From: Nanobdella aerobiophila | Lineage (GTDB): Archaea > Nanobdellota > Nanobdellia > Nanobdellales > Nanobdellaceae | Assembly (NCBI RefSeq): GCF_023169545.1 | Contig: NZ_AP019769.1 | Location: 390,001-422,000 of the forward strand | Reading direction: 5' to 3' | DNA: 32,000 bases | Shown here: piece by piece, positions 830 to 30,294 of the stretch | How the letters are laid out: the number at the start of each line of letters is the position of its first letter | Position numbering within the stretch: the first letter of the stretch is position 1 | Notes under the pieces: model-generated | Databases searched by the model: none | Seen by the model: only the letters and a program-made list of their open reading frames with translations | What the model was told of the DNA's origin: nothing | Made by a program: the position numbers and the translations under genes

Positions 830-2073
830 TGATGGATCCGTACAAAATTAGATTAGATTTCCCAATATTAAAAAGAAAAATAAATGGAAAGGATTTGGTA
901 TATTTTGATAATGCAGCAACAACCCAGAAGCCATTGAGAATAATAGAAAAATTTACAGAGGTATATACAAAATATTATGCAAATATACATAGAGGTATTC
1001 ATACTTTATCTCAGGAAGCATCCGATATGTACGAAGATGCTCATAGAATAGTCTCTGAACATCTAAATGCTAACGATTGGAGAGAAATAATATTTACAAA
1101 AAATACTACAGAGTCTATTAACTTAGTAGCATATTCTTATGGAATAAACAAGCTCAAGAAAGATGATAAGATAATAATAACAAAAATGGAACATCATGCA
1201 AATTTAGTACCATGGCAACAAGTTGCTAGAAAAACAGGAGCAAAAATAGAATATATAGACTTTAATAAGGATTATAGATTAGATATTGATCAAGCAGAAA
1301 AAATAATTGATGATAAAACCAGAATAGTGGCAATAACTCATGCCTCAAATGTATTAGGCACTATAAACCCTATAAAAGATATAATAAAAATTGCTCATGA
1401 ACATGACGCGATCGTTTTAATTGATGCTGCGCAAAGCATTCCACACAATAAGATAGATGTAAAAAAATATGATATGGATTTTTTAGCATTTAGTGCACAC
1501 AAAATGATGGGACCTGATGGGATAGGGGTATTGTATGGAAAAGAAGAGATATTAGAAAAAATGGATCCATTCTTAACTGGAGGTGATATGATAAAGGATG
1601 TAGATCTTTACAATGCTGAATGGAACGATCTACCATGGAAATTTGAAGCTGGTACACCAAATATCGCTGGTGGGATCGTATTTGGAGAAACAATAAAATA
1701 TATAAAAGATATAGGTATAGAAAATATTGAAGAATATGATAGATATATAACAAAATATTTTATTGATAAATATAATGATTATAAATTAGATGATATTATG
1801 TTAATAGGTCCTAATGATTATAAAGAGAGAACACCTACATTTTCATTCTATACTAAAAGGTATAGATCTCATCAAATTGCAAAACTATTGGATCTTGAAG
1901 GTATTGCTGTAAGATCTGGATTTCACTGTGCACATCCACTATTAAAAAATATTAATATATTAAATAATAATTTATATAACCTAGGAGGAACTTTTAGAGC
2001 CAGTTTATATATATATAATACAAAAGAAGAAGTAGATTATTTTTTTGAAATATTAAAAAAACTACTTAAATAA
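826..2073 (+). CDS. sufS: Cysteine desulfurase SufS (class V aminotransferase)
   Basis: 415 aa with HHANLVPW, the PLP-lysine motif FSAHKMMGPDGIGVLYG and the catalytic Cys loop RSGFHCAHP. The start overlaps the sufB stop (GGATGATGATGG). Confidence 0.9.
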   Translation: MMMDPYKIRLDFPILKRKINGKDLVYFDNAATTQKPLRIIEKFTEVYTKYYANIHRGIHTLSQEASDMYEDAHRIVSEHLNANDWREIIFTKNTTESINLVAYSYGINKLKKDDKIIITKMEHHANLVPWQQVARKTGAKIEYIDFNKDYRLDIDQAEKIIDDKTRIVAITHASNVLGTINPIKDIIKIAHEHDAIVLIDAAQSIPHNKIDVKKYDMDFLAFSAHKMMGPDGIGVLYGKEEILEKMDPFLTGGDMIKDVDLYNAEWNDLPWKFEAGTPNIAGGIVFGETIKYIKDIGIENIEEYDRYITKYFIDKYNDYKLDDIMLIGPNDYKERTPTFSFYTKRYRSHQIAKLLDLEGIAVRSGFHCAHPLLKNINILNNNLYNLGGTFRASLYIYNTKEEVDYFFEILKKLLK

Positions 2074-4377
2074 CCATTTATATATTATTTTAATATCTTT
2101 TTTAATTGATCTTCTCGCCTCAAACCTGCCTATATTAAAATAATCTGAAATCTTCCCAAAACTCCATGATAACAAGAATTTTCCAACCAATATTTCTTCA
2201 TTATTTAATCTTGGTTTTTCATCTGTATATAATAAATAATAGATATATATTAATTTTGCTACATCCGCTGCTGCTTCATAAGTCATTGGTGAATCAATAT
2301 ATCCCCTTAACCTATCGATCTGATTGTCTGTTAAATTAACGTGAAAGTGTGGTTTAAATTTATAATGGGTTTCTAACATTTTTAATATTATTTTTGGAGT
2401 TAAATCAAAATAAACATCAGAGACTTGATTTATTAATTTCCATCTAAATTCATAATTCAATTTTTTAACTATTTTTTCGGTATTTTCATTTAATGGTCTT
2501 AATACGATACCAGAATACTCTCCAGATACCTTGTTCTTTTCGGGCGATAGATGAACCAAAAGAAACTTATTTTTTTGCCAGAAATTTAATAGTTCATATG
2601 TTACACCAAAACTAGAACCTATCCAATCATATCTGTTTTTTTCACTCCACTTTGATAATTCCTCTAGAGATATAGATCCAAGTCCATATCCCTGTATTTC
2701 TGGTATTGTAGCTATTCTAATAACTCTTAATCCCTTTAATTTCGCAAATTCTTTTATTCTATAGTGTTTTACTATTATATCCGGTATTATATTGCCTTTA
2801 GGCTTATAATCTTTAAGCATCCTATCTATTACCTCATCTTCTATACCCCCCTCATAAGCTATTTGGACTCCATTAACAATTTTATCATTTTCTAATTCTA
2901 ATACAAAAGCATCGTGATGTGGTGCATCTGCCAACATAGCTATATCATTTGGTCTATTTTGATAATGAGCTAATATATATATTCCAACAAAATTCTTCAG
3001 TTTCTTATCATCATTATAAAACCAATCTTTTAATGGTATTCTATAAAATCTAACCTTATAACTTTTTATTAAATCTATATCTTCTTTATCTATCTCATCA
3101 GGCTCTGAATCGAGTAATAAAGAATCATATAACCACTTCTCTATTGGATCATTCTTATTATATCTTATAGGCTCAATCATAGTATATCTATATAATTTAA
3201 AATCACTATTAGAATTTAGAAACTTCATGAATCTAACAGAGAACGATCTTCCTGCACCTTCATAACCATGAATAGTAGAAGAAAAAATAATTTGCTTATA
3301 TTTTTTTATAAATCTATATAATAACTCTATCCCGATACCTGCAGCTTCATCAACAAATAGATAATCATATTTTTTTGATAATATTTCTCTCGGATCTCTA
3401 TACTCTATAAATATTTTATTATTAACAATTATTTTTGTTTTTTTAATCTCCTTAAAATCTATACCTTCTTTTTTCAAACCTATTTTTAAAAAATTAAATA
3501 AAGTTTCTACATTATTAAAGGACGGTGCAGTTATACCTATATCAAAAATTTCTTTCTTTTCCAATAAAGTTGAAACTAGTGCAGATATAGATAATCCAAT
3601 AGAGGCACTTTTACCTCTCCCCCTATCTGCAATAATAAGGTATATTGCTTTTTCATCCTTTAATAAATTTTCTAACATACTTAAAACATTGGCTTGATCT
3701 TGTGTATAACATAATCTATATATTCTATCTGAAAATATTTTATTCTCATTTAATACTAACTTATCCCTTCCAGGCAAAGTTATATTATTTATGTCACAAT
3801 CATATTCTATTCCTTTAATAACTCCTTTATCTATGTCATAAATCAATATATTTTCATACTGCATTAATTTATTTTTAAACCTATATTCAAATAGCTTCCT
3901 TACTTCTTCTATTTTATATGGAGGCGTTAGTAGATGTTCATGAAATGTTGTAGTTATACCTTCAAAGTTATCAAAGTCCTTGATTATTAAGAATCCTATA
4001 CCAGATCCGGATAGAGTTTCAATTATTCTACCCAAATAATCGGGAGTTAGAGATTTATACATATCTAAAATTAATATATTATATGTTTTTCCTAATATCT
4101 TATCAGAATCTTTATATCTAATTTTATCTACTTGTAAATCTTTAAAATTTTCTAACAATTTTTCATATCTATATAAATAGTCTCCAAAATAATCCTCAGT
4201 AACATACAATATTTTTATATCCTCCCTATAATTTTCTATCTTTGATATATAATAATTTATAAGGTCTGATAAGATATGAAAATAATTCTCTCCAGATAAT
4301 ACTACAATGCCTCTATGATTATTTTTTATGATTTTACATATTAAAGACTTATAATTCTTTTCTAATTCTTGATCCAT
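2062..4377 (-). CDS. tmcA: tRNA(Met) cytidine acetyltransferase TmcA (Kre33/NAT10 family)
   Basis: 771 aa. It has the P-loop IIADRGRGKSASIG, Walker-B-like LFVDEAAGI and a GNAT motif RIATIPEIQGYGLGS, followed by a C-terminal tRNA-binding-like tail. This is the typical TmcA domain order. Confidence 0.85.
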   Translation of the reverse strand: MDQELEKNYKSLICKIIKNNHRGIVVLSGENYFHILSDLINYYISKIENYREDIKILYVTEDYFGDYLYRYEKLLENFKDLQVDKIRYKDSDKILGKTYNILILDMYKSLTPDYLGRIIETLSGSGIGFLIIKDFDNFEGITTTFHEHLLTPPYKIEEVRKLFEYRFKNKLMQYENILIYDIDKGVIKGIEYDCDINNITLPGRDKLVLNENKIFSDRIYRLCYTQDQANVLSMLENLLKDEKAIYLIIADRGRGKSASIGLSISALVSTLLEKKEIFDIGITAPSFNNVETLFNFLKIGLKKEGIDFKEIKKTKIIVNNKIFIEYRDPREILSKKYDYLFVDEAAGIGIELLYRFIKKYKQIIFSSTIHGYEGAGRSFSVRFMKFLNSNSDFKLYRYTMIEPIRYNKNDPIEKWLYDSLLLDSEPDEIDKEDIDLIKSYKVRFYRIPLKDWFYNDDKKLKNFVGIYILAHYQNRPNDIAMLADAPHHDAFVLELENDKIVNGVQIAYEGGIEDEVIDRMLKDYKPKGNIIPDIIVKHYRIKEFAKLKGLRVIRIATIPEIQGYGLGSISLEELSKWSEKNRYDWIGSSFGVTYELLNFWQKNKFLLVHLSPEKNKVSGEYSGIVLRPLNENTEKIVKKLNYEFRWKLINQVSDVYFDLTPKIILKMLETHYKFKPHFHVNLTDNQIDRLRGYIDSPMTYEAAADVAKLIYIYYLLYTDEKPRLNNEEILVGKFLLSWSFGKISDYFNIGRFEARRSIKKDIKIIYKWLFK

Positions 4378-4592: not shown

Positions 4593-6338
4593 TTAAAGTA
4601 AAATATATCTTAATTTAATATCTAAAGCCTTCAATAATTTTGGATCATCTACAAGAACTATAGAAATTCCTTTAGAAACTCCTCCCGGATACAATCTAGA
4701 GCTCCTACCAGAAGCCTGTAAATAAGTTTTTATATCTACTATATTCAATATTATATTATTATCTTCAATGGTTATTGAAACATCTTCACTATCTTTTAGC
4801 TTATTGACTATATCGGGATTTTTTAAATAGATAGATATACTATTATATATATTTTTTATCAAATCATAAATATACCCCTTACCATTATTATTTTTTAGGG
4901 AGTCTGATAATAATCTAAGCGCTTCGGGAGATAATCTTTTGATATAATTTCTCAATCTTTCAATTTTTTTATTTAATATGCTCCTCTCGTAAGATGTTAA
5001 AAATGAAGAAATAAGATTTCCTAGTAAAATTAAATTATTTATATTATATTCTAGATTAGATAAGTTTATCCTTATTTTTGGTATTCCAAAAAATATAGTA
5101 TATTTTATTCTTTCAGGCAGATTTAATCCCCTGGCTAGGATACCATATGGATCTGCCACACCAATCAGTACATCTGTTTTGTTTTCTTCAAAATCTTTTA
5201 TTTTTTCATCTATTTTTTTAACTTCTGCTGATATATACTGAACCTTTATTCCCCTCTCTAATAAAAAATTATATATGACTTTAACATAATCTATACCTTT
5301 ATCCTTTGAAACAAATATTATTATACCATCTTTCAATTTCCTTACTAATTCATATAACTTATCTAAATCTTGTGTATTATAATATATATCTATTACATTT
5401 CTCAATTTATAATTACCAGTACCAGAAGAGAAATTAGTAAGTTCTTTATATATTAACGACCTTTTGCCTTTTAGTGAACCAGTAGCAGAGGATAATACTA
5501 TTATTCCTACCTTTTTTGACTTTATTTCCAAAAATTTTTTATAAATATCGCTATTAAAATCTAGTTTCCCAGCCAATTTAAGATCAATAACCTTTTTTAC
5601 TATGTCTAAATCCTCATTAGTATATCCTATTAAATTAAATACTCTTTCTATATTTTTTGAACCTTTAAAAAATGAATCTACGTCATCTATGAATATAATA
5701 TCGAATCTATAATTATTTAATAAATTAAAATTTTTTGATAGATACTGATTTGATATTATTAGTATATCTATATTACCTTCTCTTAGTTTATTTTCAAACT
5801 CTTTTTTATTTTTAATATTATATGAAAGTATATTTAATTTAACGTTAAGTTTTTCTACAGATCTATTAATTTCATTTTCAGTCTGTTTAACTAATAATCT
5901 TGTTGGTAATATTATTAATATTTTCTTTTTATATTTATAAGAAAAATATATGGAGGATAGATATATAAATGTAGACTTTCCAACGCCTGTTGGAGCGACC
6001 ATGGAAAAACCGATATTTTTATACAATCTTTTAAACCACATTAACTGAACTTTCCAAGGATCTGTATTTACAATACTTCTAAAGAAATTTGAAAATTCTT
6101 TAACTTCTCTATGAAAATTATATATCTGATCAAAATCCTTTAATCTCTTATTTTTTAATAATATTTTATATAATTGATCTATAAATTTATTTCTATCATC
6201 AATGTTTATTATATTATTAATATCTATATCGTCAATATCCAATTTACATGGTAAAGAGTTTGATAATCTAGATGATTCTATTAAACCACCACAATTGAAA
6301 CACATATTTTTAATATTAATAAATATTCCATCATCCAT
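4593..6338 (-). CDS. rgy: Reverse gyrase, helicase-like N-terminal half only (split gene)
   Basis: N-terminal CFNCGG zinc-finger remnant, then PWKVQLMWFKRL, Walker A APTGVGKST, IIFIDDVDSFFKGSKNIE and motif VI QASGRSSRLYPGGVSKGISIV. The ORF stops right after the helicase module. No Toprim/topoisomerase IA domain follows. Confidence 0.85.
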   Translation of the reverse strand: MDDGIFINIKNMCFNCGGLIESSRLSNSLPCKLDIDDIDINNIINIDDRNKFIDQLYKILLKNKRLKDFDQIYNFHREVKEFSNFFRSIVNTDPWKVQLMWFKRLYKNIGFSMVAPTGVGKSTFIYLSSIYFSYKYKKKILIILPTRLLVKQTENEINRSVEKLNVKLNILSYNIKNKKEFENKLREGNIDILIISNQYLSKNFNLLNNYRFDIIFIDDVDSFFKGSKNIERVFNLIGYTNEDLDIVKKVIDLKLAGKLDFNSDIYKKFLEIKSKKVGIIVLSSATGSLKGKRSLIYKELTNFSSGTGNYKLRNVIDIYYNTQDLDKLYELVRKLKDGIIIFVSKDKGIDYVKVIYNFLLERGIKVQYISAEVKKIDEKIKDFEENKTDVLIGVADPYGILARGLNLPERIKYTIFFGIPKIRINLSNLEYNINNLILLGNLISSFLTSYERSILNKKIERLRNYIKRLSPEALRLLSDSLKNNNGKGYIYDLIKNIYNSISIYLKNPDIVNKLKDSEDVSITIEDNNIILNIVDIKTYLQASGRSSRLYPGGVSKGISIVLVDDPKLLKALDIKLRYILL

Positions 6339-7811: not shown

Positions 7812-8615
7812 CTAACCAAAATAATATCTAGACCTTTCCTCCGATTTTTTCTGATTTTCTTGTAACTCCTTTAATCTGCTTATATCTTTTTCTATACTCT
7901 CTTTCAACTTCTTTCCTTTCTCTCTTAAACCAGTCAAATCAATATTAAAATTATATATTTTTCCCAATATTTCTAATGCTTTTGAAGATGCATAATATCC
8001 ATTAATTTGATTTGTAGGATAAGTTTGCACTAGTAATGCATAAGCTGGCTTCTTATATAATTGAGAATAATATAATGTCAGCCCGCTCATCCCAACAATA
8101 CTTTGTGATTTGAATATATTTATGTCTCCAATTTTCTCTTTTATGTTATTAATATTATAAAATTTATTAAATGCAAACATATAATTTGGATCTTCAGCCT
8201 CTAGTTCTACATTAGAATTATAAGACCCACCCAATATCGCATATTCTTTTATATCATATCTCTTTAGCTTTTTAAATAATTTATTCATAAATCTATATCT
8301 TAAATATAATGATAATCCAGGATCTTCCAATACAGATACCTGAAAATCACCATATAATATAAGAAAATCTGTCTCATTTACTTTTAAATTATACAACTTA
8401 TAACTTATATTATCAGATACTATACCTTTTTTATTTATATATACTAGATCTGGAAAAAAGTCTGAGAGTATTCTCCCAACTAGAACACTTTTAAAAGATC
8501 TAATCATTGTTTTACCGACCACTTTTGCCACATTCCCAAATCCTCCACCTATAGAATACAAAAATACAGCATTTTTCATATTTTTCAAAATATTATTATC
8601 TAATATAAATTCCAT
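7812..8615 (-). CDS. PAC2-family proteasome assembly chaperone-like protein (COG1938)
   Basis: 267 aa with an N-terminal glycine-rich LYSIGGGFGNVAKVVG and a coiled C-terminal tail ending YYFG. It sits after aIF2alpha-Nop10, as in many archaea. Confidence 0.6.
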   Translation of the reverse strand: MEFILDNNILKNMKNAVFLYSIGGGFGNVAKVVGKTMIRSFKSVLVGRILSDFFPDLVYINKKGIVSDNISYKLYNLKVNETDFLILYGDFQVSVLEDPGLSLYLRYRFMNKLFKKLKRYDIKEYAILGGSYNSNVELEAEDPNYMFAFNKFYNINNIKEKIGDINIFKSQSIVGMSGLTLYYSQLYKKPAYALLVQTYPTNQINGYYASSKALEILGKIYNFNIDLTGLREKGKKLKESIEKDISRLKELQENQKKSEERSRYYFG

Positions 8616-9586: not shown

Positions 9587-10441
9587 TTAATTATTTACAA
9601 CATTCAATTCTCCTATTTCCTGTTCAGAAAATACAAAATAATTAAATATTAATTCGCCATACAATATATTTTCATTTCCAGCTTGCACTGGTATTTCTAT
9701 ATAATAATTATTTGAACTTGAACTAAAGCTTTCAGAACCAGTATATGTGTATTGGTTACTATTAATATATAGAGTTAGATCATAATTAAATGAGTAATTT
9801 AATAAATTTACAGAATTCAGGTTACAATCTCCTGTAATATCATTATTGGTTATAGAGAATAGATTATTATTATTCTTTATATAAAAATTAACCACTATAT
9901 AATGACCGGAGCTAGAAGGTATTGAATAAAAACTATATATCATTATAGGACTACCTTTAGAATCTATATTATATTCAAAATTGCATTGTTGATTAGAGAA
10001 ACAACCCGAAAAGAAATAGATTGTTTTATATTGATAACATTCATATAAATTAATAGGTACAGTATTAGAACTTAATAAATTAGGATTAGTTAAGGTTATC
10101 TGCCCATTAACTGGTAAAACAAAATTATAGAAATTTTGTGCGCCTAAATTATTGCTATCCTCACAATTAGAACCAGACACCTGAAATCCATTTGGTAATC
10201 CTGCCAAGCATACAGACCAGTCAAGATTTTTATCTGATGTAACTATATTTATCGGTATATTAAAACCAACATCATTAAAAACCTGTGGACTAAATCCTCC
10301 GCCCAAATTTATATTAAAATAAAATACTGTAGAATTTGTACTATTTGTTTGACTAATACTGTTATTTGTTGTAGTAGGACATATAGAAAAGAAAAACAAT
10401 GCAACAAATAGTATAGGAGCAAATATAATAGCCCTAGCCAT
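9587..10441 (-). CDS. Pilin-like / secreted surface protein (284 aa), unknown family
   Basis: N-terminus MARA|IIFAPILFVALFFFSICPTTTNNS: a short basic leader, then about 18 hydrophobic residues, then a Cys-Pro-Thr-Thr and S/T/N-rich linker. The rest is N/S/Y-rich with several Cys. The start overlaps the upstream gene by 8 nt. Confidence 0.6.
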   Translation of the reverse strand: MARAIIFAPILFVALFFFSICPTTTNNSISQTNSTNSTVFYFNINLGGGFSPQVFNDVGFNIPINIVTSDKNLDWSVCLAGLPNGFQVSGSNCEDSNNLGAQNFYNFVLPVNGQITLTNPNLLSSNTVPINLYECYQYKTIYFFSGCFSNQQCNFEYNIDSKGSPIMIYSFYSIPSSSGHYIVVNFYIKNNNNLFSITNNDITGDCNLNSVNLLNYSFNYDLTLYINSNQYTYTGSESFSSSSNNYYIEIPVQAGNENILYGELIFNYFVFSEQEIGELNVVNN

Positions 10442-15797: not shown

Positions 15798-15854
15798 TAT
15801 TATGATGATGTGAGCACCCACTGAGATTATGATGATGCAAAGTAAACTGATGTG
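15798..15854 (+). ncRNA. C/D box sRNA (2'-O-methylation guide)
   Basis: t-ATGATGA(C, 15802-15808)-TGTGAGCACCCA(12 nt)-CTGA(D', 15821-15824)-GATT-ATGATGA(C', 15829-15835)-TGCAAAGTAAA(11 nt)-CTGA(D, 15847-15850). All four boxes are perfect and the spacing is canonical for archaea. It lies in the gap between the peptidase gene and the IS relic. Confidence 0.8.
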
Positions 15855-15856
15855 AA

Positions 15857-16528
15857 CTACTCCGTCCTTACTAACGGAGCATCTCGCGATGGAGATTTCC
15901 TGCTTCTTCCAGGAAACTTACTATACACACTCTCAGAGAAGAGTATGTATAGCAGAGGTTCCCTGTCCACAGGCTCTAAGGGCAGTCCCGACCCCGAACG
16001 AAGAATATTTAGAGATGCATTATAATCACGATCTACAGTCCAACCGCATTTAGAGCAAGTGAAGGTACGATCAGAAAGAGTTAGATCTTTTTTCACATAT
16101 CCACATTTAGCACATGTTCTTGAAGTATTTCTAGGATCTACTTTCACTACCCTCCTACCAGCTCTTTCAGCCTTATAGGAGAGGTAGCTTATGAACTTGG
16201 AGAAATTAGAGTGAAGAGTGTGTTTTTTCAAAGTTTTACTTGTACTATTCTCAACGATTTTCTTCACATCAAGGTCTTCCACGTATATTTCATCATACTG
16301 TTCAACAAGCCACGAAGTCACCTTATGAATATAATCACTCATCAAGTCTTTCAACATGTTTTGAGTGTCCTTAGGTGTTATCTTTTTCCCTTCTTTCCCT
16401 GAGTTATTCACTATGTCTAGTAATGCGTTGTATACTTTAGCTTCAATTTGCATAACCTTGAGCAATCTTTCCTCTACTTTTTTCGTTGGATAAATTCTGT
16501 ACTTGAACGAGAGTTGAATTTTATCACT
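15857..16528 (-). pseudogene. tnpB: TnpB (IS200/IS605 OrfB) relic with internal deletion and lost start codon
   Basis: The C-terminal half is intact: DYIHKVTSWLVEQYDEIYVEDLDV (RuvC-II Glu), the zinc finger TSRTCAKCGY...FTCSKCGW, and DRDYNASLNIL (RuvC-III Asp). The same frame, open up to 16528, encodes QLSFKYRIYPTKKVEERLLKV..VYNALLD, the typical TnpB N-terminus. About 170-200 aa in between are missing, including the RuvC-I GIDLG region. No ATG/GTG/TTG precedes FKYRIYP, and an in-frame TAG lies at 16529-16531. Confidence 0.8.
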
Positions 16529-17027: not shown

Positions 17028-18176
17028 TTATTCTTCTAGCTTTATATTTTTCATATATAATATTCTCTTTATATTATCAATATCATGCTCTAATAGTTTT
17101 ATCTTCTCTATCTCAGATGTTATATACTCAAAATTAGTAATATCAATCACATTTTCTATTTTTTGCAACTTACTTGATATCTTATTATAATCATCTACAA
17201 TACTATCTGTTATATCTTTAAAATCGGTTATCTCATATTTTATACTTTCTATATCTCTTTTTAATAAGTTTATTATATTTTCTAAATCATCTATCTTATG
17301 GTTAATAGTAGAAATTTTTTCCAAATCACTTGATTTAGTCCTCATCTCATTTACTATATTCTGTAAATCATTAAATAATCCATATATGTTATTTAATTTA
17401 TTTTCAAAATCTATATATTTTGAATAAAGGTTTTTAAATGATACAATTTCTTTTATATTTTTAATATCTTCATTAGATATACTTTTTAAATAAGAAAAAT
17501 CATTTATATTCTTATCTATATACTCTTTTATATTCTTATTATCCGATATTAACTTATCTATATCTTTCTTCAAATTATATATATCTTTATTTTTTAGGTT
17601 CTCTAATTCTTCCGTTATCTTATTATACAGAACAATATCTTCCAATATCTTATTTATATTGTTTTCTAAGGTTTTAGTTAATTTATTTAAATCATCTTTT
17701 ATCTTAATAAAATCTTTTTTATCTGTATAGTTATCCTCAATATTTTTTATTTTTAGATAAAATTCCTTTATATTATCTTGTAGATCCTTTAATATTTTAT
17801 TATTATCGCTATATCTAGATATTGAATTATTTATATCAATTATTTCACTCTCTAACTTATTCAATTTAGACCTAAGATCTATAATAGAAGTATAATCCAC
17901 AAAATTCTTTTGATTATTCTCCAAAACTTCTAATTTTATAGATATGTCCTGAAGATCTTTTATTTTATTATATAAATCCTCATTTATATATTTTTTATAG
18001 TCTTCTACGATTTTATTTAATTTATCAACTCTATCTTTTATATCATCTATATCTTTATAATATTCTGATCTTTCGAGATAATAACTTAACCTCTTATTTA
18101 ATTCTATAAATTTTTCATTGAGTTTTTTCGTATATAAATAAAACTCATTTACTATATCAAAATCCTTACTATTCAT
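17028..18176 (-). CDS. Long coiled-coil protein (382 aa), function unknown
   Basis: K/E/D/N/I-rich heptad-like sequence throughout. No TM segment and no NTPase motif. Confidence 0.6.
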   Translation of the reverse strand: MNSKDFDIVNEFYLYTKKLNEKFIELNKRLSYYLERSEYYKDIDDIKDRVDKLNKIVEDYKKYINEDLYNKIKDLQDISIKLEVLENNQKNFVDYTSIIDLRSKLNKLESEIIDINNSISRYSDNNKILKDLQDNIKEFYLKIKNIEDNYTDKKDFIKIKDDLNKLTKTLENNINKILEDIVLYNKITEELENLKNKDIYNLKKDIDKLISDNKNIKEYIDKNINDFSYLKSISNEDIKNIKEIVSFKNLYSKYIDFENKLNNIYGLFNDLQNIVNEMRTKSSDLEKISTINHKIDDLENIINLLKRDIESIKYEITDFKDITDSIVDDYNKISSKLQKIENVIDITNFEYITSEIEKIKLLEHDIDNIKRILYMKNIKLEE

Positions 18177-25709: not shown

Positions 25710-25793
25710 GCGGAGGTGTCCGAGAGGCCAAAGGAGATCGGTTGAGGTCCGACTGGTGCAGAACCGCCAGGGGTTCAAATCCCCTCCTCCGCA
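25710..25793 (+). tRNA. tRNA-Leu (anticodon GAG), class II with long variable arm, no encoded CCA
   Basis: Manual cloverleaf. Acceptor GCGGAGG/CCTCCGC, 3-bp D stem, anticodon loop TTGAGGT, variable-arm stem GGTG/CGCC, and T arm AGGGG-TTCAAAT-CCCCT. There is one A-C mismatch at the base of the anticodon stem. Confidence 0.9.
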
Positions 25794-25895: not shown

Positions 25896-26005
25896 ATATT
25901 GAATGATGCAAGATTATTTAGATCAATTATATGGTTATTATGAACTAGATTTGTAGATAGCAAACATCTATTATCTCATTTATTGAAAAATAGAATATTA
26001 AATTC

Positions 26006-26088
26006 TGGACCCGCAGGGATTCGAACCCTGGAAGACTCTCGTCATCTGGACCTGAACCAGACTCCATCGACCACTCGGACACGGGTCC
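26006..26088 (-). tRNA. tRNA-Leu (anticodon CAG), class II, no encoded CCA
   Basis: Reverse complement GGACCCG-TG-TCC..GGA-G-TCTGG-TTCAGGT-CCAGA-(variable arm)-CAGGG-TTCGAAT-CCCTG-CGGGTCC-A. All stems are Watson-Crick. Confidence 0.95.
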
Positions 26089-26125
26089 ATAAATTAATAT
26101 TTTTTAATGAATTATATAATTTTAT

Positions 26126-27652
26126 ATGATTAGATCATTATTTATAGATCTTGATAAGAAAGAATTTAAAAATGAAATAATAGATAATAGAACTCTCGAT
26201 TATTCTATAATCTTGAATAAGGATATTTATAGGACCTACGAGAGAGATCCTTATAATAACAATCTTACTATACTATCTGCCGGATATATAAAAGATGAAA
26301 ATGATATAACTTCCTTATTAATATATAGGTCACCCATAACAAATTCTTTAGATATAAATATATCTTCATTTGGAAAATATATAAGAAATACAGGAAATGA
26401 CATGATAATATTAAAAGGAAGGTTAGATAAAAAATATTTTATAATAATAGAAAATGACAATGTAATATTTTTAGAGGATGATATAGAAGAAGATATATAT
26501 AATAAAAAGGAAAAATTATATGGAGAATTAAAAAATATATATGGTAACGAAGACTTTATATTATTATTAAACGGTTTAGGATCAAAATATACTATATATG
26601 GAAATTTAATAATATTTAAAGATGATAAGATTAAAGCAACAAAAGGTGGTATAGGCTCGGTTTTATATAATTATCATAATATTTCCGGGATTTCTATCGG
26701 AGGAAATAACCATGTAAAAATAAATGAGATTAAGATAAATGAAAAAAATATGAATTTTCATGAGAACATTAATGATGTATACAACTTAATATATGAAAAA
26801 GTACCCATATTAAATTTTAAAAATATTTATCTGGCAAAAGAAGAAAATAAAAAAATTTTCGAAGATTTTATATATCCTTTGATAAATAATTTGAAGAAAA
26901 AATATCCATATGAGCCTTTTAATATGTTTGGGCCTTTTTTAGGTATATTTGATGAAAATTATATTTCATTATTGATAGATAAGGCAAATAGATATGGTCT
27001 TGATACATTATATTTAGGTTTTATTCTAGGACTTATATTGGAAGGTCTTGCAATGAACAAAGTAAATATAAATGGATTAAATAGTTCTATATTTGATTTT
27101 AATAATTTAGATAGATCAACAGAAAATAATTATAAAATTGTAGATTATCTAATGGATAAAATCGCTTATGAAGAACTATCTATTCTAGGAAAGAATATAA
27201 GATATATTTCTAATATATTTAATCTAGACGATATATCTGTATATGCACCTTTGGGAGAATCTTATTCTGCAGTGTTCAATCCATATATATCATTGGGTTT
27301 GTTTTTACCAAATATAATATATGATAAATATTTTTCAGATCATTTAATGAATCCTACTGATCCAGTTAGCTATGCAGAATTAAATTATGGAAGACTTGAA
27401 TCAACATTTTATATAAATAATTTACATGATAATATATATAATTTTAAAAGGGATAATGTTTTCGTAAAGATGTTAGAGTATCAGAAATTAACAAATTCTA
27501 TGCCTAATTTTAATTATTCAAAAAGATTAAACGATATATACTTGTATATATCCAGAAATTATAATTTAAATTATACTTTTGAAGATTATTTTTTAAACTA
27601 TTATAATAGATATAAAGAATTAATATATAATAATAAAGCCTCCGTAGTGTAG
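26126..27652 (+). CDS. Aldehyde:ferredoxin oxidoreductase (AOR)-family homologue lacking all cysteines
   Basis: The N-domain pattern ...RSPITNSLDINISSFGKYIRNTGNDMIILKGRLDKKYFIIIENDNVIFLEDD... and KGGIGSVLYNYHNISGISIGG resembles AOR (SPLTG..GG.FG..LK.AGYDAIVI.G; RGGLGAVMGSKNLKAI). The central segment EPFNMFGPFLGIFDENYISLLIDKANRYGLDTLYLGFILGLILEG resembles the AOR GLDTIS..G..I...ME region. The 508-aa product contains no Cys. Confidence 0.5.
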   Translation: MIRSLFIDLDKKEFKNEIIDNRTLDYSIILNKDIYRTYERDPYNNNLTILSAGYIKDENDITSLLIYRSPITNSLDINISSFGKYIRNTGNDMIILKGRLDKKYFIIIENDNVIFLEDDIEEDIYNKKEKLYGELKNIYGNEDFILLLNGLGSKYTIYGNLIIFKDDKIKATKGGIGSVLYNYHNISGISIGGNNHVKINEIKINEKNMNFHENINDVYNLIYEKVPILNFKNIYLAKEENKKIFEDFIYPLINNLKKKYPYEPFNMFGPFLGIFDENYISLLIDKANRYGLDTLYLGFILGLILEGLAMNKVNINGLNSSIFDFNNLDRSTENNYKIVDYLMDKIAYEELSILGKNIRYISNIFNLDDISVYAPLGESYSAVFNPYISLGLFLPNIIYDKYFSDHLMNPTDPVSYAELNYGRLESTFYINNLHDNIYNFKRDNVFVKMLEYQKLTNSMPNFNYSKRLNDIYLYISRNYNLNYTFEDYFLNYYNRYKELIYNNKASVV

Positions 27653-28680: not shown

Positions 28681-29730
28681 TTATATCTTTTTAATTTTTG
28701 CAATATAAAATCCCTCTGTATCATTATCCCATGGCCATATCCTTACAGTATTTCTTATATCTTCTAGATTTTCTATCTTATATTTTCCATATTCTTCAAT
28801 TATTTCTGATTTATTAAGATTTGGTATGTTTATTTTTTCTATTTTTGCATTTTCTCTCTTTGATAATAAATAATCTACTATAAACTCATTTTCTAATGGT
28901 TCTACAGAACATGTTGAATATACTAGTGTCCCTCCTTCTTTTAAATTATCAAAAGCTTTAATTATTAATTTCTTTTGCAAATAACTCAATCTATTTATAG
29001 CATCGTTGCTCCATATTTTTAATGTCTTATATGATTTTCTTATTGCTCCAGTTCCAGAACATGGTGCATCTAGTAAAATTTTATCGAACTTAATATTTAA
29101 TCTATCTATTTTTAACCCATCCATCATGGTAACTATTGTATTTATAATACCCTGCTTTTGTAAATTTTCACCTAAAGCTCTTATTCTATTTATATCAACA
29201 TCATTTGCTATTATTAATCCCTCATTTTCCATATGCATAGCAATTTGTGTCGTTTTTGAACCAGGTGCAGCGGCGAGATCTAATATCACATCATCTTTTT
29301 TTGGATCCAATGCTATGGGAGGTATCATAGACGCAGCCTCTTGTGGATAATAATAACCTAGTTGGAACTCTACAGTATTTCCTATATCCCGTCTATAACC
29401 ATCTATCCAAAATCCATATTTATAAAATGGTATCCTCTTTATTTCCCAACCATAATCTTTCAATCTGGATAATACTTCTTTTGCCGATATGTTTATTTTA
29501 AATGGATTTTGCCTTAAATTATATATATTATCTATTTCTTTTGATATATATCTTAAATTTTCTTCTTTTATTATGCATTTTAGGTTATCATAATTTATGT
29601 CGTCTATTAATTTTATTGTATTTATTCTTATAGCTTTCTTTAATAGTCTAAAGGACCATTCTAAAAATTTATCATAATCTTTGTCTAATAATCTCTTAAA
29701 ATGCTCTTCAAAGCTTTCTTTTATTTCCAT
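28681..29730 (-). CDS. NOL1/NOP2/Sun-family RNA cytosine-C5 methyltransferase
   Basis: SAM motif LDLAAAPGSKTTQIA, motif IV LLDAPCSGTGAIRK and motif VI GGTLVYSTCS, with both catalytic Cys present. Confidence 0.9.
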   Translation of the reverse strand: MEIKESFEEHFKRLLDKDYDKFLEWSFRLLKKAIRINTIKLIDDINYDNLKCIIKEENLRYISKEIDNIYNLRQNPFKINISAKEVLSRLKDYGWEIKRIPFYKYGFWIDGYRRDIGNTVEFQLGYYYPQEAASMIPPIALDPKKDDVILDLAAAPGSKTTQIAMHMENEGLIIANDVDINRIRALGENLQKQGIINTIVTMMDGLKIDRLNIKFDKILLDAPCSGTGAIRKSYKTLKIWSNDAINRLSYLQKKLIIKAFDNLKEGGTLVYSTCSVEPLENEFIVDYLLSKRENAKIEKINIPNLNKSEIIEEYGKYKIENLEDIRNTVRIWPWDNDTEGFYIAKIKKI

Positions 29731-29782
29731 CAGTCGCTATCTAATCATCATCATTCAGGAGCGTAATGCTTCATCATTAAAA
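29728..29782 (-). ncRNA. C/D box sRNA (2'-O-methylation guide)
   Basis: Minus strand reads a-ATGATGA(C, 29777-29771)-AGCATTACGCTC(12 nt)-CTGA(D', 29758-29755)-ATG-ATGATGA(C', 29751-29745)-TTAGATAGCGA(11 nt)-CTGA(D, 29733-29730). It fills the 57-nt gap between the ppa stop and the methyltransferase ATG. Confidence 0.8.
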
Positions 29783-29787
29783 AATAT

Positions 29788-30294
29788 TTATTTTTTATTT
29801 ACTAAAGCTTCAGTTATAACTTTTTCTGCTTCTAATTTACCCTTAAATTCTTTTATTTTTACATATTTACCTGGCTCTAATTCCTTGTAATGCTCATAAA
29901 AGTGTTTTATTTGGTTTAATATTGCTTCCGGTAGATCTTTTATATCTTTTATACCTGAAAATCTAGGATCTATTTTATCGATTGGGACTGCAATTATTTT
30001 TCTATCTGTACCTTTCTCATCTTCTGTAACTAATACTCCTATTGGTCTTGCGGATATTATAGAGCCTGGGAATAAGATATCATATGATATCACTAATACA
30101 TCCAATGGATCTCCATCTTCTTCTAGTGTTTCTGGTATAAATCCATAATTAAATGGATAAAACATTGCCGTATATAGTATCCTATCTACCCTCATTACTT
30201 TCTCTTCTTCATCAAATTCGTATTTTACATTACTTCCCTTTGGAATTTCTATAAAAACATTTATATCCTCTGGTGGATTCTTTCCAGCTTTCAT
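29788..30294 (-). CDS. ppa: Inorganic pyrophosphatase, family I
   Basis: 168 aa with the signature [25 protein letters not shown] and [10 protein letters not shown]. Confidence 0.95.

Follow-up and report, generated by a model that had tools for sequence, protein, structure and literature searches.

We analyzed a window of 32,000 nt from the genome of the archaeon Nanobdella aerobiophila (contig NZ_AP019769.1, positions 390,001 to 422,000 of the forward strand; coordinates below are those of the window) and focused on a short element between two genes of the minus strand. The upstream gene is ppa, encoding inorganic pyrophosphatase (29788..30294; Pfam PF00719, 4.7e-60), and the downstream gene (28681..29730) encodes an RNA 5-methylcytosine (m5C) methyltransferase of the NOL1/NOP2/Sun family with 349 aa (Pfam domains Methyltr_RsmB-F, PF01189, 9e-56, and RsmF_N, PF17125). 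The ppa stop codon is located at 29790-29788, and the gap to the open reading frame (ORF) of the methyltransferase amounts to 57 nt. Most of this gap is taken up by a 48-nt element (29730..29777, minus strand, from box C to box D), recognized by its four-box pattern and its rank in a profile search, which in our view is very probably a genuine archaeal box C/D guide small RNA (sRNA) gene and the orthologue of sRNA9 of Nanoarchaeum equitans.

Read on the minus strand from 29777 to 29730, the element has the form ATGATGA-AGCATTACGCTC-CTGA-ATG-ATGATGA-TTAGATAGCGA-CTGA. It is composed of the C box ATGATGA (RUGAUGA; 29771..29777), the 12-nt D' guide AGCATTACGCTC (29759..29770), the D' box CTGA (29755..29758), the spacer ATG between D' and C' (29752..29754), the C' box ATGATGA (29745..29751), the 11-nt D guide TTAGATAGCGA (29734..29744) and the D box CTGA (29730..29733). 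According to the ORF list the methyltransferase ATG begins with the final A of the D box (29730); three codons upstream of this ATG the reading frame contains a TAG. The mature sRNA probably ends 1–3 nt beyond 29730–29777. Nine bases, ATATTTTTT, lie between the ppa stop codon and A29778, the base preceding the C box; they include a run of six T residues (29779..29784, minus strand) directly upstream of the sRNA, a candidate oligo-T terminator for ppa. The guides contain 50% (D') and 36% (D) G+C compared to 24.8% for the window. The original prediction, made from the sequence alone, had read four perfect boxes in this order with guides of 12 and 11 nt, and it proved base-for-base correct; the same holds for the 57-nt gap, the 9-nt offset from the ppa stop with its T6 run, the first base of the methyltransferase ORF shared with the D box and guides richer in G+C than the background.

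Similarity to archaeal C/D box sRNAs

We searched the window for a strict pattern of four boxes (RTGATGA, 9–14 nt, CTGA, 1–10 nt, RTGATGA, 9–14 nt, CTGA) and used 1000 first-order Markov shuffles of the window to estimate how often it arises by chance. Two matches were found in the window, namely this locus and a site at 15802–15850 on the plus strand, while the pattern occurred in 0 of the 1000 shuffles. In addition, a sequence-only profile (R1) built from 24 RNA-seq-validated C/D sRNAs of N. equitans (Randau 2012) was run over the whole window with filters switched off; sRNA9 was excluded from the training to avoid circularity. This profile places the locus first in the window with 23.2 bits and an E-value of 1.6e-6, followed by the element at 15802 (E 0.007), and the remainder is noise. 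The guide spacers of 12 and 11 nt can be compared with those of the aligned N. equitans sRNAs, which are mostly 10–13 nt long. A permissive Rfam scan covering 29650–29860 matched about 20 archaeal C/D families over their full length, each time on the minus strand at 29728–29781, and the best of these (sR5) reached 33.4 bits (E 1.9e-6) against a gathering score of 40. Such sub-threshold scores are expected for a new guide RNA that has fitting boxes but shares no guide with the Rfam families. Standard Rfam thresholds yield no guide RNA in genomes of the Nanobdellota (formerly Nanoarchaeota), and the element is thus an unannotated addition to them. Genes for L7Ae, Nop5 and fibrillarin were not found in the window.

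Conservation in related genomes

The gene order ppa–sRNA–methyltransferase, together with the junction CTGATG, is kept in six related genomes: Nanobdellota archaeon YN1 (AP031373), Candidatus Nanopusillus acidilobi (CP010514), two metagenome-assembled genomes of Nanopusillus and two assemblies of Candidatus Nanobsidianus stetteri. Three features are invariant in all 7 genomes (the window and these six), namely the run of six to seven T residues, a 9-nt core of the D' guide (CATTACGCT) and CTGATG; the invariant T run could terminate the transcription of ppa. We calculated the identity of each segment over five lineages, N. equitans sRNA9 included. The D' box is fully conserved (1.00), followed by the C' box (0.94), the D box (0.90), the C box (0.86) and the D' guide (0.84), and much lower values were obtained for the spacer (0.47) and the D guide (0.34). 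Measured against the D guide, which provides a neutral reference within the same RNA, the D' guide is clearly selected. Only the D' guide behaves as a selected guide as judged from these alignments, and the D guide is not conserved: it is lineage-specific, with TTAGATAGCGA being unique to this genome, a string of only 9 nt in YN1 (GACCTTCCA) and A+T-rich strings in Nanopusillus and Nanobsidianus. The C box occurs in the relatives as ATGAAGA, GTGAAGA and GTGAGGA, and the first two variants are also present in validated N. equitans sRNAs.

A core of the D' guide also occurs in N. equitans sRNA9, which has the sequence TATAAATGAAGA-GGGATTACGCTT-CTGA-TTA-ATGATGA-CAAACATTAA-CAGAT and is covered by 19,600 reads (Randau 2012, Genome Biol 13:R63, Additional file 2). 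The two RNAs share ATTACGCT-CTGA, that is 8 of the 12 guide positions and the D' box. We regard the anatomy of the element, its statistics, its conservation and its similarity to validated sRNAs as demonstrated. The architecture and spacing, the R1 profile, the sub-threshold Rfam matches and the conservation in six genomes all support the canonical double-guide archaeal C/D sRNA that the original prediction had proposed.

Predicted targets of the two guides

What we infer from the sequence is the target of the sRNA, the structure of its transcript and its assembly into a ribonucleoprotein. As in other archaea, the sRNA would fold into C/D and C'/D' kink-turns and bind L7Ae, Nop5 and fibrillarin, and 2'-O-methylation would fall on the nucleotide that pairs with the fifth guide base upstream of box D'. 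For sRNA9 the published predicted target is Gm2028 of the 23S rRNA in UAGCGmUAGUCCCUUG (Randau 2012). We rebuilt positions 1985–2046 of the N. equitans 23S rRNA, which belong to the helix 69/70 region, by joining the overlapping published targets of sRNA26, 11, 22, 9 and 5 (...GGGAGUAACUGUAACUCUCUUAAGGUAGCGUAGUCCCUUGCCGGUUA). The sRNA9 target site was placed within CUCUUAAGGUAGCG, corresponding to positions 1927–1935 of the Escherichia coli 23S rRNA (L081), which read AAGGUAGCG, and the target G aligns to G1935. The equivalent region of the Haloarcula marismortui 23S rRNA (L233) is CUCUUAAGGUAGCGUAGUACCUUGCCG. We observed that guide positions 4–11 pair with AGCGUAGU, which is identical in the 23S rRNAs of N. 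equitans and H. marismortui (the two archaeal sequences examined), and that the G1935 equivalent is paired with the fifth guide base upstream of D'. Guide positions 1–3, which are AGC, AAC or GGG depending on the lineage, face rRNA that differs as well (UCC in E. coli, ACC in H. marismortui, CCC in N. equitans), and the base adjoining D' varies freely (C, T, G), as expected of an unpaired base. The invariant part of the guide thus falls on invariant rRNA and its variable part on variable rRNA, which is the pattern expected of a real guide for this site. On this comparison the most likely target of the D' guide is 5'-AGCGUA(A/G)UG-3' of the 23S rRNA, with predicted methylation of the G of ‘GGUAGCG’ (E. 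coli G1935, N. equitans G2028) in helix 70 of domain IV, and we hold this assignment to be probable. It would imply a helix 70 of the form GGUAGCGUA(A/G)UG(C/U)(U/C) in the 23S rRNA. Helix 70 is a non-canonical helix of domain IV in a region where rRNA methylations are known to cluster. The sRNA9 guide and the prediction of its helix 70 target are conserved across these tiny symbionts, the identity of the target site itself depending on conservation of the rRNA.

A site in helix 71 (E. coli 1971–1982, UGGCGUAAUGAU) was first taken as the target of the D' guide, being its best match in E. coli, and was dropped when the N. equitans sRNA9 table pointed to helix 70. Neither guide matches a tRNA of the window. 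We also looked for rRNA sequences of closer relatives. A metagenome scan with AGCGTAATGCTN{5,9}CTGTC gave 120 matches, all of which are chance matches in non-rRNA DNA, and scans of viral contigs for AAGGTAGCGTARTGCT and CTCTTAAGGTAGCGTARTNNNTTG gave no rRNA. A peptide search in the antisense frames of the helix 69/70 region for a Nanobdellaceae 23S contig returned 0 candidates sharing three words with the query. Of the loci compared, only that of E. coli carries universal rRNA motifs, and the Nanobdellota loci contain no G+C-rich segment of rRNA length, only segments of about 160–190 nt.

For the D guide, the best match of TTAGATAGCGA on the H. marismortui 23S rRNA is CUGCUAUCUAC, the homologue of E. 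coli 2609–2619 (UCCCUAUCUGC). The pairing would comprise nine contiguous pairs including one G-U, with U2613 (E. coli numbering) as the N+5 nucleotide. As nine pairs are expected by chance within a few kilobases, 5'-UCGCUAUCUAA-3' of the 23S rRNA is only a weak candidate target, and the guide may otherwise be an orphan. We consider it either a recent acquisition (with U2613 as candidate) or an orphan, as guides adjoining an ORF start usually are (Lui et al. 2018, PMC6009581). A match of the D guide to the E. coli A-loop (2555) was rejected, since the A-loop sequence predicted from the sRNA at 15802 is incompatible with UCGCU.

The methyltransferase and its linkage to the sRNA gene

The methyltransferase scores 294.9 bits with the general nop2p model TIGR00446 (cutoff 210), and its catalytic motifs D221-x-P223-C224-S225 and S272-T273-C274 (DAPCS and STC) are invariant in 22 homologues. 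With the family profile above cutoff and the catalytic cysteines present, the NOL1/NOP2/Sun-type RNA m5C methyltransferase named in the original prediction is well supported. All substrate-specific equivalog models remained below their cutoffs, namely tRNA (cytosine49-C5) methyltransferase (298 vs 550 bits), RsmF (243 vs 588 bits) and RsmB (187 vs 319 bits), and the closest solved structures are 1ixk (PH1374), YebU/RsmF, MJ0026 (Trm4) and Nop2. By its sequence the enzyme is assigned to the NOL1/NOP2/Sun (RsmB/F, Trm4, Nop2) family as a whole, and it passes no substrate-specific model. An exact record of this methyltransferase was not found.

We further investigated whether the neighbourhood of sRNA and methyltransferase is general, and this was rejected after seven further lineages had been examined. 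In homologues with 60–69% identity (L005, L006, L227–L229) the methyltransferase ORF overlaps the end of an upstream gene for a Hef-like helicase-nuclease and no sRNA is present, and no sRNA adjoins the methyltransferase gene in L230–L232 either. A different sRNA, ATGATGA-TGTTACCCATCT-CTGA-TTA-ATGAAGA-ATGCCGAGTTAG-CTGA, is located on the minus strand at 9925–9973 of L224, and also in L225 and L226, in a Nanopusillaceae-like lineage; in these three loci it lies 27 nt upstream of the ATG of a methyltransferase with 66% identity, on the opposite strand. The adjacency of a guide sRNA and a base methylase gene, in which the original prediction saw a physical coupling, is thus real, but it is restricted to one clade and this type of arrangement has already been published. 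Across lineages the methyltransferase gene adjoins a gene for an AFOR-like protein (resembling a divergent aldehyde:ferredoxin oxidoreductase, with a weak AFOR_N match and AFOR_C below cutoff), also in those with another upstream neighbour (window 26126–27652, plus strand; L222 11169–12689; L227 5893–7566; L228 9032–10480).

Transcription and the overlap of D box and start codon

Most first genes in the window lack a leader and are preceded by a box of the TTTATAAA type some 33 to 20 nt before the ATG, with examples at ppa, 4593–6338 (minus strand), 7008, 7812–8615 (minus strand), 17028–18176 (minus strand) and 30883; for ppa itself the box is TTTATAAAA, 28 to 20 nt upstream of its ATG. Together with the lack of obvious Shine–Dalgarno sequences these boxes suggest that mRNAs are mostly leaderless here. 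For the methyltransferase gene the usual distance is occupied by sRNA sequence, and neither a TATA-like element there nor a Shine–Dalgarno-like motif is present. A TATA-like element (TTTAGTAAATA, 29796..29806, minus strand) lies within the last ppa codons and is a possible promoter of a transcript containing both sRNA and methyltransferase. In the relatives TTTAAAAATA or ATATAAAAAC is located in the same codons, 31 to 22 nt upstream of the purine preceding the C box, which is the distance of the TTTATAAA-type boxes before other ATGs of the window. Lacking its own promoter at the distance seen for other genes, the methyltransferase gene would depend on a transcript that includes the sRNA, and the two RNAs probably derive from one primary transcript, which may begin at the TATA-like element within the last ppa codons or arise by read-through from ppa. 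The shared or overlapping transcript that had been postulated at the outset is therefore a reasonable inference.

No cut between the D box and the AUG can leave both of them intact, and any one transcript will therefore probably give rise to the sRNA or to an mRNA that can be translated. In our opinion genome compaction offers the best explanation of the one-base overlap, which would be its by-product, with the likely side effect that a given transcript would be turned into a mature sRNA or a translatable mRNA, not both.

Alternative explanations

Several results weigh against a guide RNA with the target and promoter proposed here. The sRNA scores below the gathering score of every Rfam family, a scan of the window at gathering level gave tRNAs only, and no significant fold was detected (z = -0.09), which is normal for C/D sRNAs. 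For the D' target a fragment of the N. equitans 23S rRNA served as proxy, the 8 contiguous pairs including one G-U have a length that is not significant alone, and the helix 70 site is not the top match of the D' guide on the H. marismortui 23S rRNA. Compared to the relatives the TATA-like element of the window is shifted by about 3 nt towards the sRNA, and A+T motifs are cheap at 75% A+T. The boxes could then be a chance product of A+T-rich sequence, or form only a cis-acting kink-turn leader of the methyltransferase mRNA, which would agree with the lack of an Rfam family at gathering score, with a D' target predicted from the rRNA of other species as proxy and with the unconstrained D guide. 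We regard this as extremely improbable: the pattern was absent from all shuffles, the profile E-value is very low (1.6e-6), and the 12-nt D' guide, dispensable for a pure kink-turn operator, is as conserved as the boxes and matches a validated N. equitans sRNA. Accepting a true guide sRNA, one might instead ask whether its position reflects shared function, with the sRNA and its NSUN-family neighbour both acting on the helix 70/71 cluster of the rRNA. For yeast 25S rRNA we presume the sequence GGUAGCCAAAUGCCUCG, with which the published residue numbers are in agreement, and on that basis the D' target aligns with C2278. This alignment speaks for a partnership. Yeast C2278 is methylated by the NSUN-family enzyme Rcm1 and acts together with nearby snoRNA-guided ribose methylations (PMC4174444, where C2278, A2280, A2281, G2283 and G2288 are numbered), and several N. 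equitans sRNA genes overlap genes of RNA-modification enzymes, for which an association was suggested (Randau 2012). Yet the aligned nucleotide is a G in N. equitans and H. marismortui and thus cannot be m5C there, the enzyme is closest to the PH1374, Trm4 and RsmF types without passing a substrate-specific model, and the linkage is found in one clade only, with a different sRNA on the opposite strand in another clade and none in four others. Nothing ties the neighbouring enzyme to helix 70, and we consider such a partnership very unlikely.

The conserved overlap of D box and AUG might also be a selected translational switch. L7Ae, with Nop5 and fibrillarin, would bind the nascent C/D kink-turn and bury the start codon, and the transcript would be trimmed to the sRNA; only transcripts escaping assembly would be translated, so that the output of the m5C methyltransferase would be inverse to the amount of free sRNP (small ribonucleoprotein) proteins. 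The sequence prerequisite of an L7Ae kink-turn operator, a C/D motif spanning the AUG, is present, and CTGATG is invariant in the 7 genomes with the adjoining 9–12 nt of the D guide free to change. The missing TATA-like box and Shine–Dalgarno-like sequence of the methyltransferase gene would suit a switch too. L7Ae is known to repress the translation of mRNAs with leader kink-turns (PMC5539422), an sRNA overlapping the 5' end lowers the expression of a downstream reporter according to the account of Tripp 2017 given in PMC7994747, and the same idea of interference was proposed by Lui et al. (PMC6009581). However, the invariance of CTGATG is expected without any regulation, since none of its bases can be altered without loss of the D box or the start codon, and the linkage is missing from more distant homologues of the same methyltransferase. 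A selected switch is therefore unlikely in our judgement, though less so than the alternatives above. The more specific proposal that the shared base is a device which turns each primary transcript into a guide RNP with fibrillarin or an mRNA for the NSUN-type enzyme, and by which the availability of L7Ae and Nop5 sets ribose against base methylation, both perhaps converging on the helix 70 cluster (the site of NSUN5/Rcm1 in eukaryotes), appears quite unlikely and clearly less probable than a switch as such. We thus prefer a guide sRNA gene whose contact with the start codon results from genome compaction. Co-cultures of N. aerobiophila and YN1 exist, in which the excision of the sRNA versus translation of the overlapping mRNA could be addressed.

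Further elements in the window and in related genomes

The second sRNA of the window (15802–15850, plus strand) has the sequence ATGATGA-TGTGAGCACCCA-CTGA-GATT-ATGATGA-TGCAAAGTAAA-CTGA and, besides its R1 match, sub-threshold matches to Rfam C/D families. Its D' guide resembles the guide of N. equitans sRNA10 (AGTGAACACCCT), for which the published target is 23S Um2630 in GGGGUmGUUCACC, the equivalent of U2552 in the A-loop (Randau 2012). Next to it lies the sole segment of the window with at least 50% G+C (15851–16010), whose minus strand folds with -66.8 kcal/mol (z = -4.95) and shows a sub-threshold match to RAGATH-18 (25.1 bits, E 0.013). On this strand the segment overlaps the 3' end of an ORF of 202 aa (15857–16465, minus strand) with a Cas12f1-like/TnpB TNB domain. 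It could be the guide-RNA (omega RNA) scaffold of a decayed IS200/605-type TnpB element; the 3' side of the scaffold would run antisense into the sRNA at 15802–15850.

Another C/D-like element, ATGAAGA-CGCTCGTTAATG-CTGA-AAG-ATGATGA-ATGCTGGAGGCT-CAGA, was found on the plus strand of L232 (6558–6606). Here the C' box supplies the called ATG (6584) of a gene for a putative RNA methylase of the UPF0020/N6_N4_Mtase type; this may be a further sRNA over the start of a modification-enzyme gene, or the start codon may be miscalled. The window contains a further RNA-modification gene, encoding a NAT10/TmcA-type RNA cytidine acetyltransferase (2062–4377, minus strand) with helicase, GNAT and TmcA_N domains. 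ARAGORN predicted two tRNA-Leu genes (25710–25793, plus strand, and 26005–26089, minus strand), which are absent from the Rfam scan at gathering level, where only the tRNAs at 27638 and 31452 were found. A search of literature and supplements for expression tables of N. aerobiophila gave nothing.

Comparison with known systems

The closest known counterpart is sRNA9, which agrees with the sRNA described here in its architecture, in the D' guide core ATTACGCT followed by CTGA and in the C' box ATGATGA. Its C box AUGAAGA belongs to the same variant class as that of archaeon YN1, and its D guide has no predicted target, as in most of the relatives. It differs in the first three guide bases, which are GGG compared to AGC or AAC and match the variable rRNA positions, and in its D box CAGA, which does not overlap a start codon; the next start follows about 28 nt downstream, and the flanking genes are NEQ274 and NEQ276 (a literature search for NEQ274 gave nothing). 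The Rfam families sR5 (RF01304), sR1 (RF01152) and snoPyro_CD (RF00095) share four boxes and a spacing that align over the full length, but with 33.4, 26.3 and 24.4 bits compared to gathering scores of 40, 45 and 45 and with unrelated guides the locus is not a member of these families.

The helix 70/71 cluster of yeast (m5C2278 by Rcm1/NSUN5; Am2280 and Am2281 by snR13; Gm2288 by snR75) represents the same rRNA neighbourhood as the predicted D' target, which aligns with C2278, and in yeast both guide RNA and NSUN-type enzymes modify the region. The difference is that the nucleotide is a G in the two archaeal 23S rRNAs examined and that the predicted change is a ribose methylation, not m5C. The repression by L7Ae through kink-turns (Daume et al. 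2017, mBio) resembles our case in that a kink-turn-forming sequence at or near the start codon could recruit L7Ae. In the case of Daume et al. this is a dedicated leader element of the l7ae mRNA, whereas in our locus the kink-turn would come from the C/D motif of an entire guide RNA, and its role is putative.

Overlaps of sRNA genes with ORF starts have been described before. Most C/D sRNA genes of N. equitans overlap mRNAs, several of them at genes of RNA-modification enzymes (Randau 2012), an overlap with the 5' end of an ORF is reported for about 7% of the sRNA genes in archaea and lowers reporter expression (PMC7994747), and L7Ae binding might interfere with the translation of such mRNAs (PMC6009581, PMC5539422). 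By kind the locus is therefore ordinary, and the sRNA leaves the current understanding of C/D sRNAs unchanged. It shares with the published cases (2017; Lui et al. 2018; PMC7994747) an sRNA that lies upstream on the same strand and overlaps the start codon, a downstream gene without its own promoter, an ORF-proximal guide that tends to be an orphan and the proposal of translational interference. What distinguishes it is that a single base is shared, the A of CUGA and AUG, so that the D guide is free of coding constraint, and that the overlap is kept across several genera, which makes it a clean and evolutionarily stable case of a D box sharing a base with a start codon.

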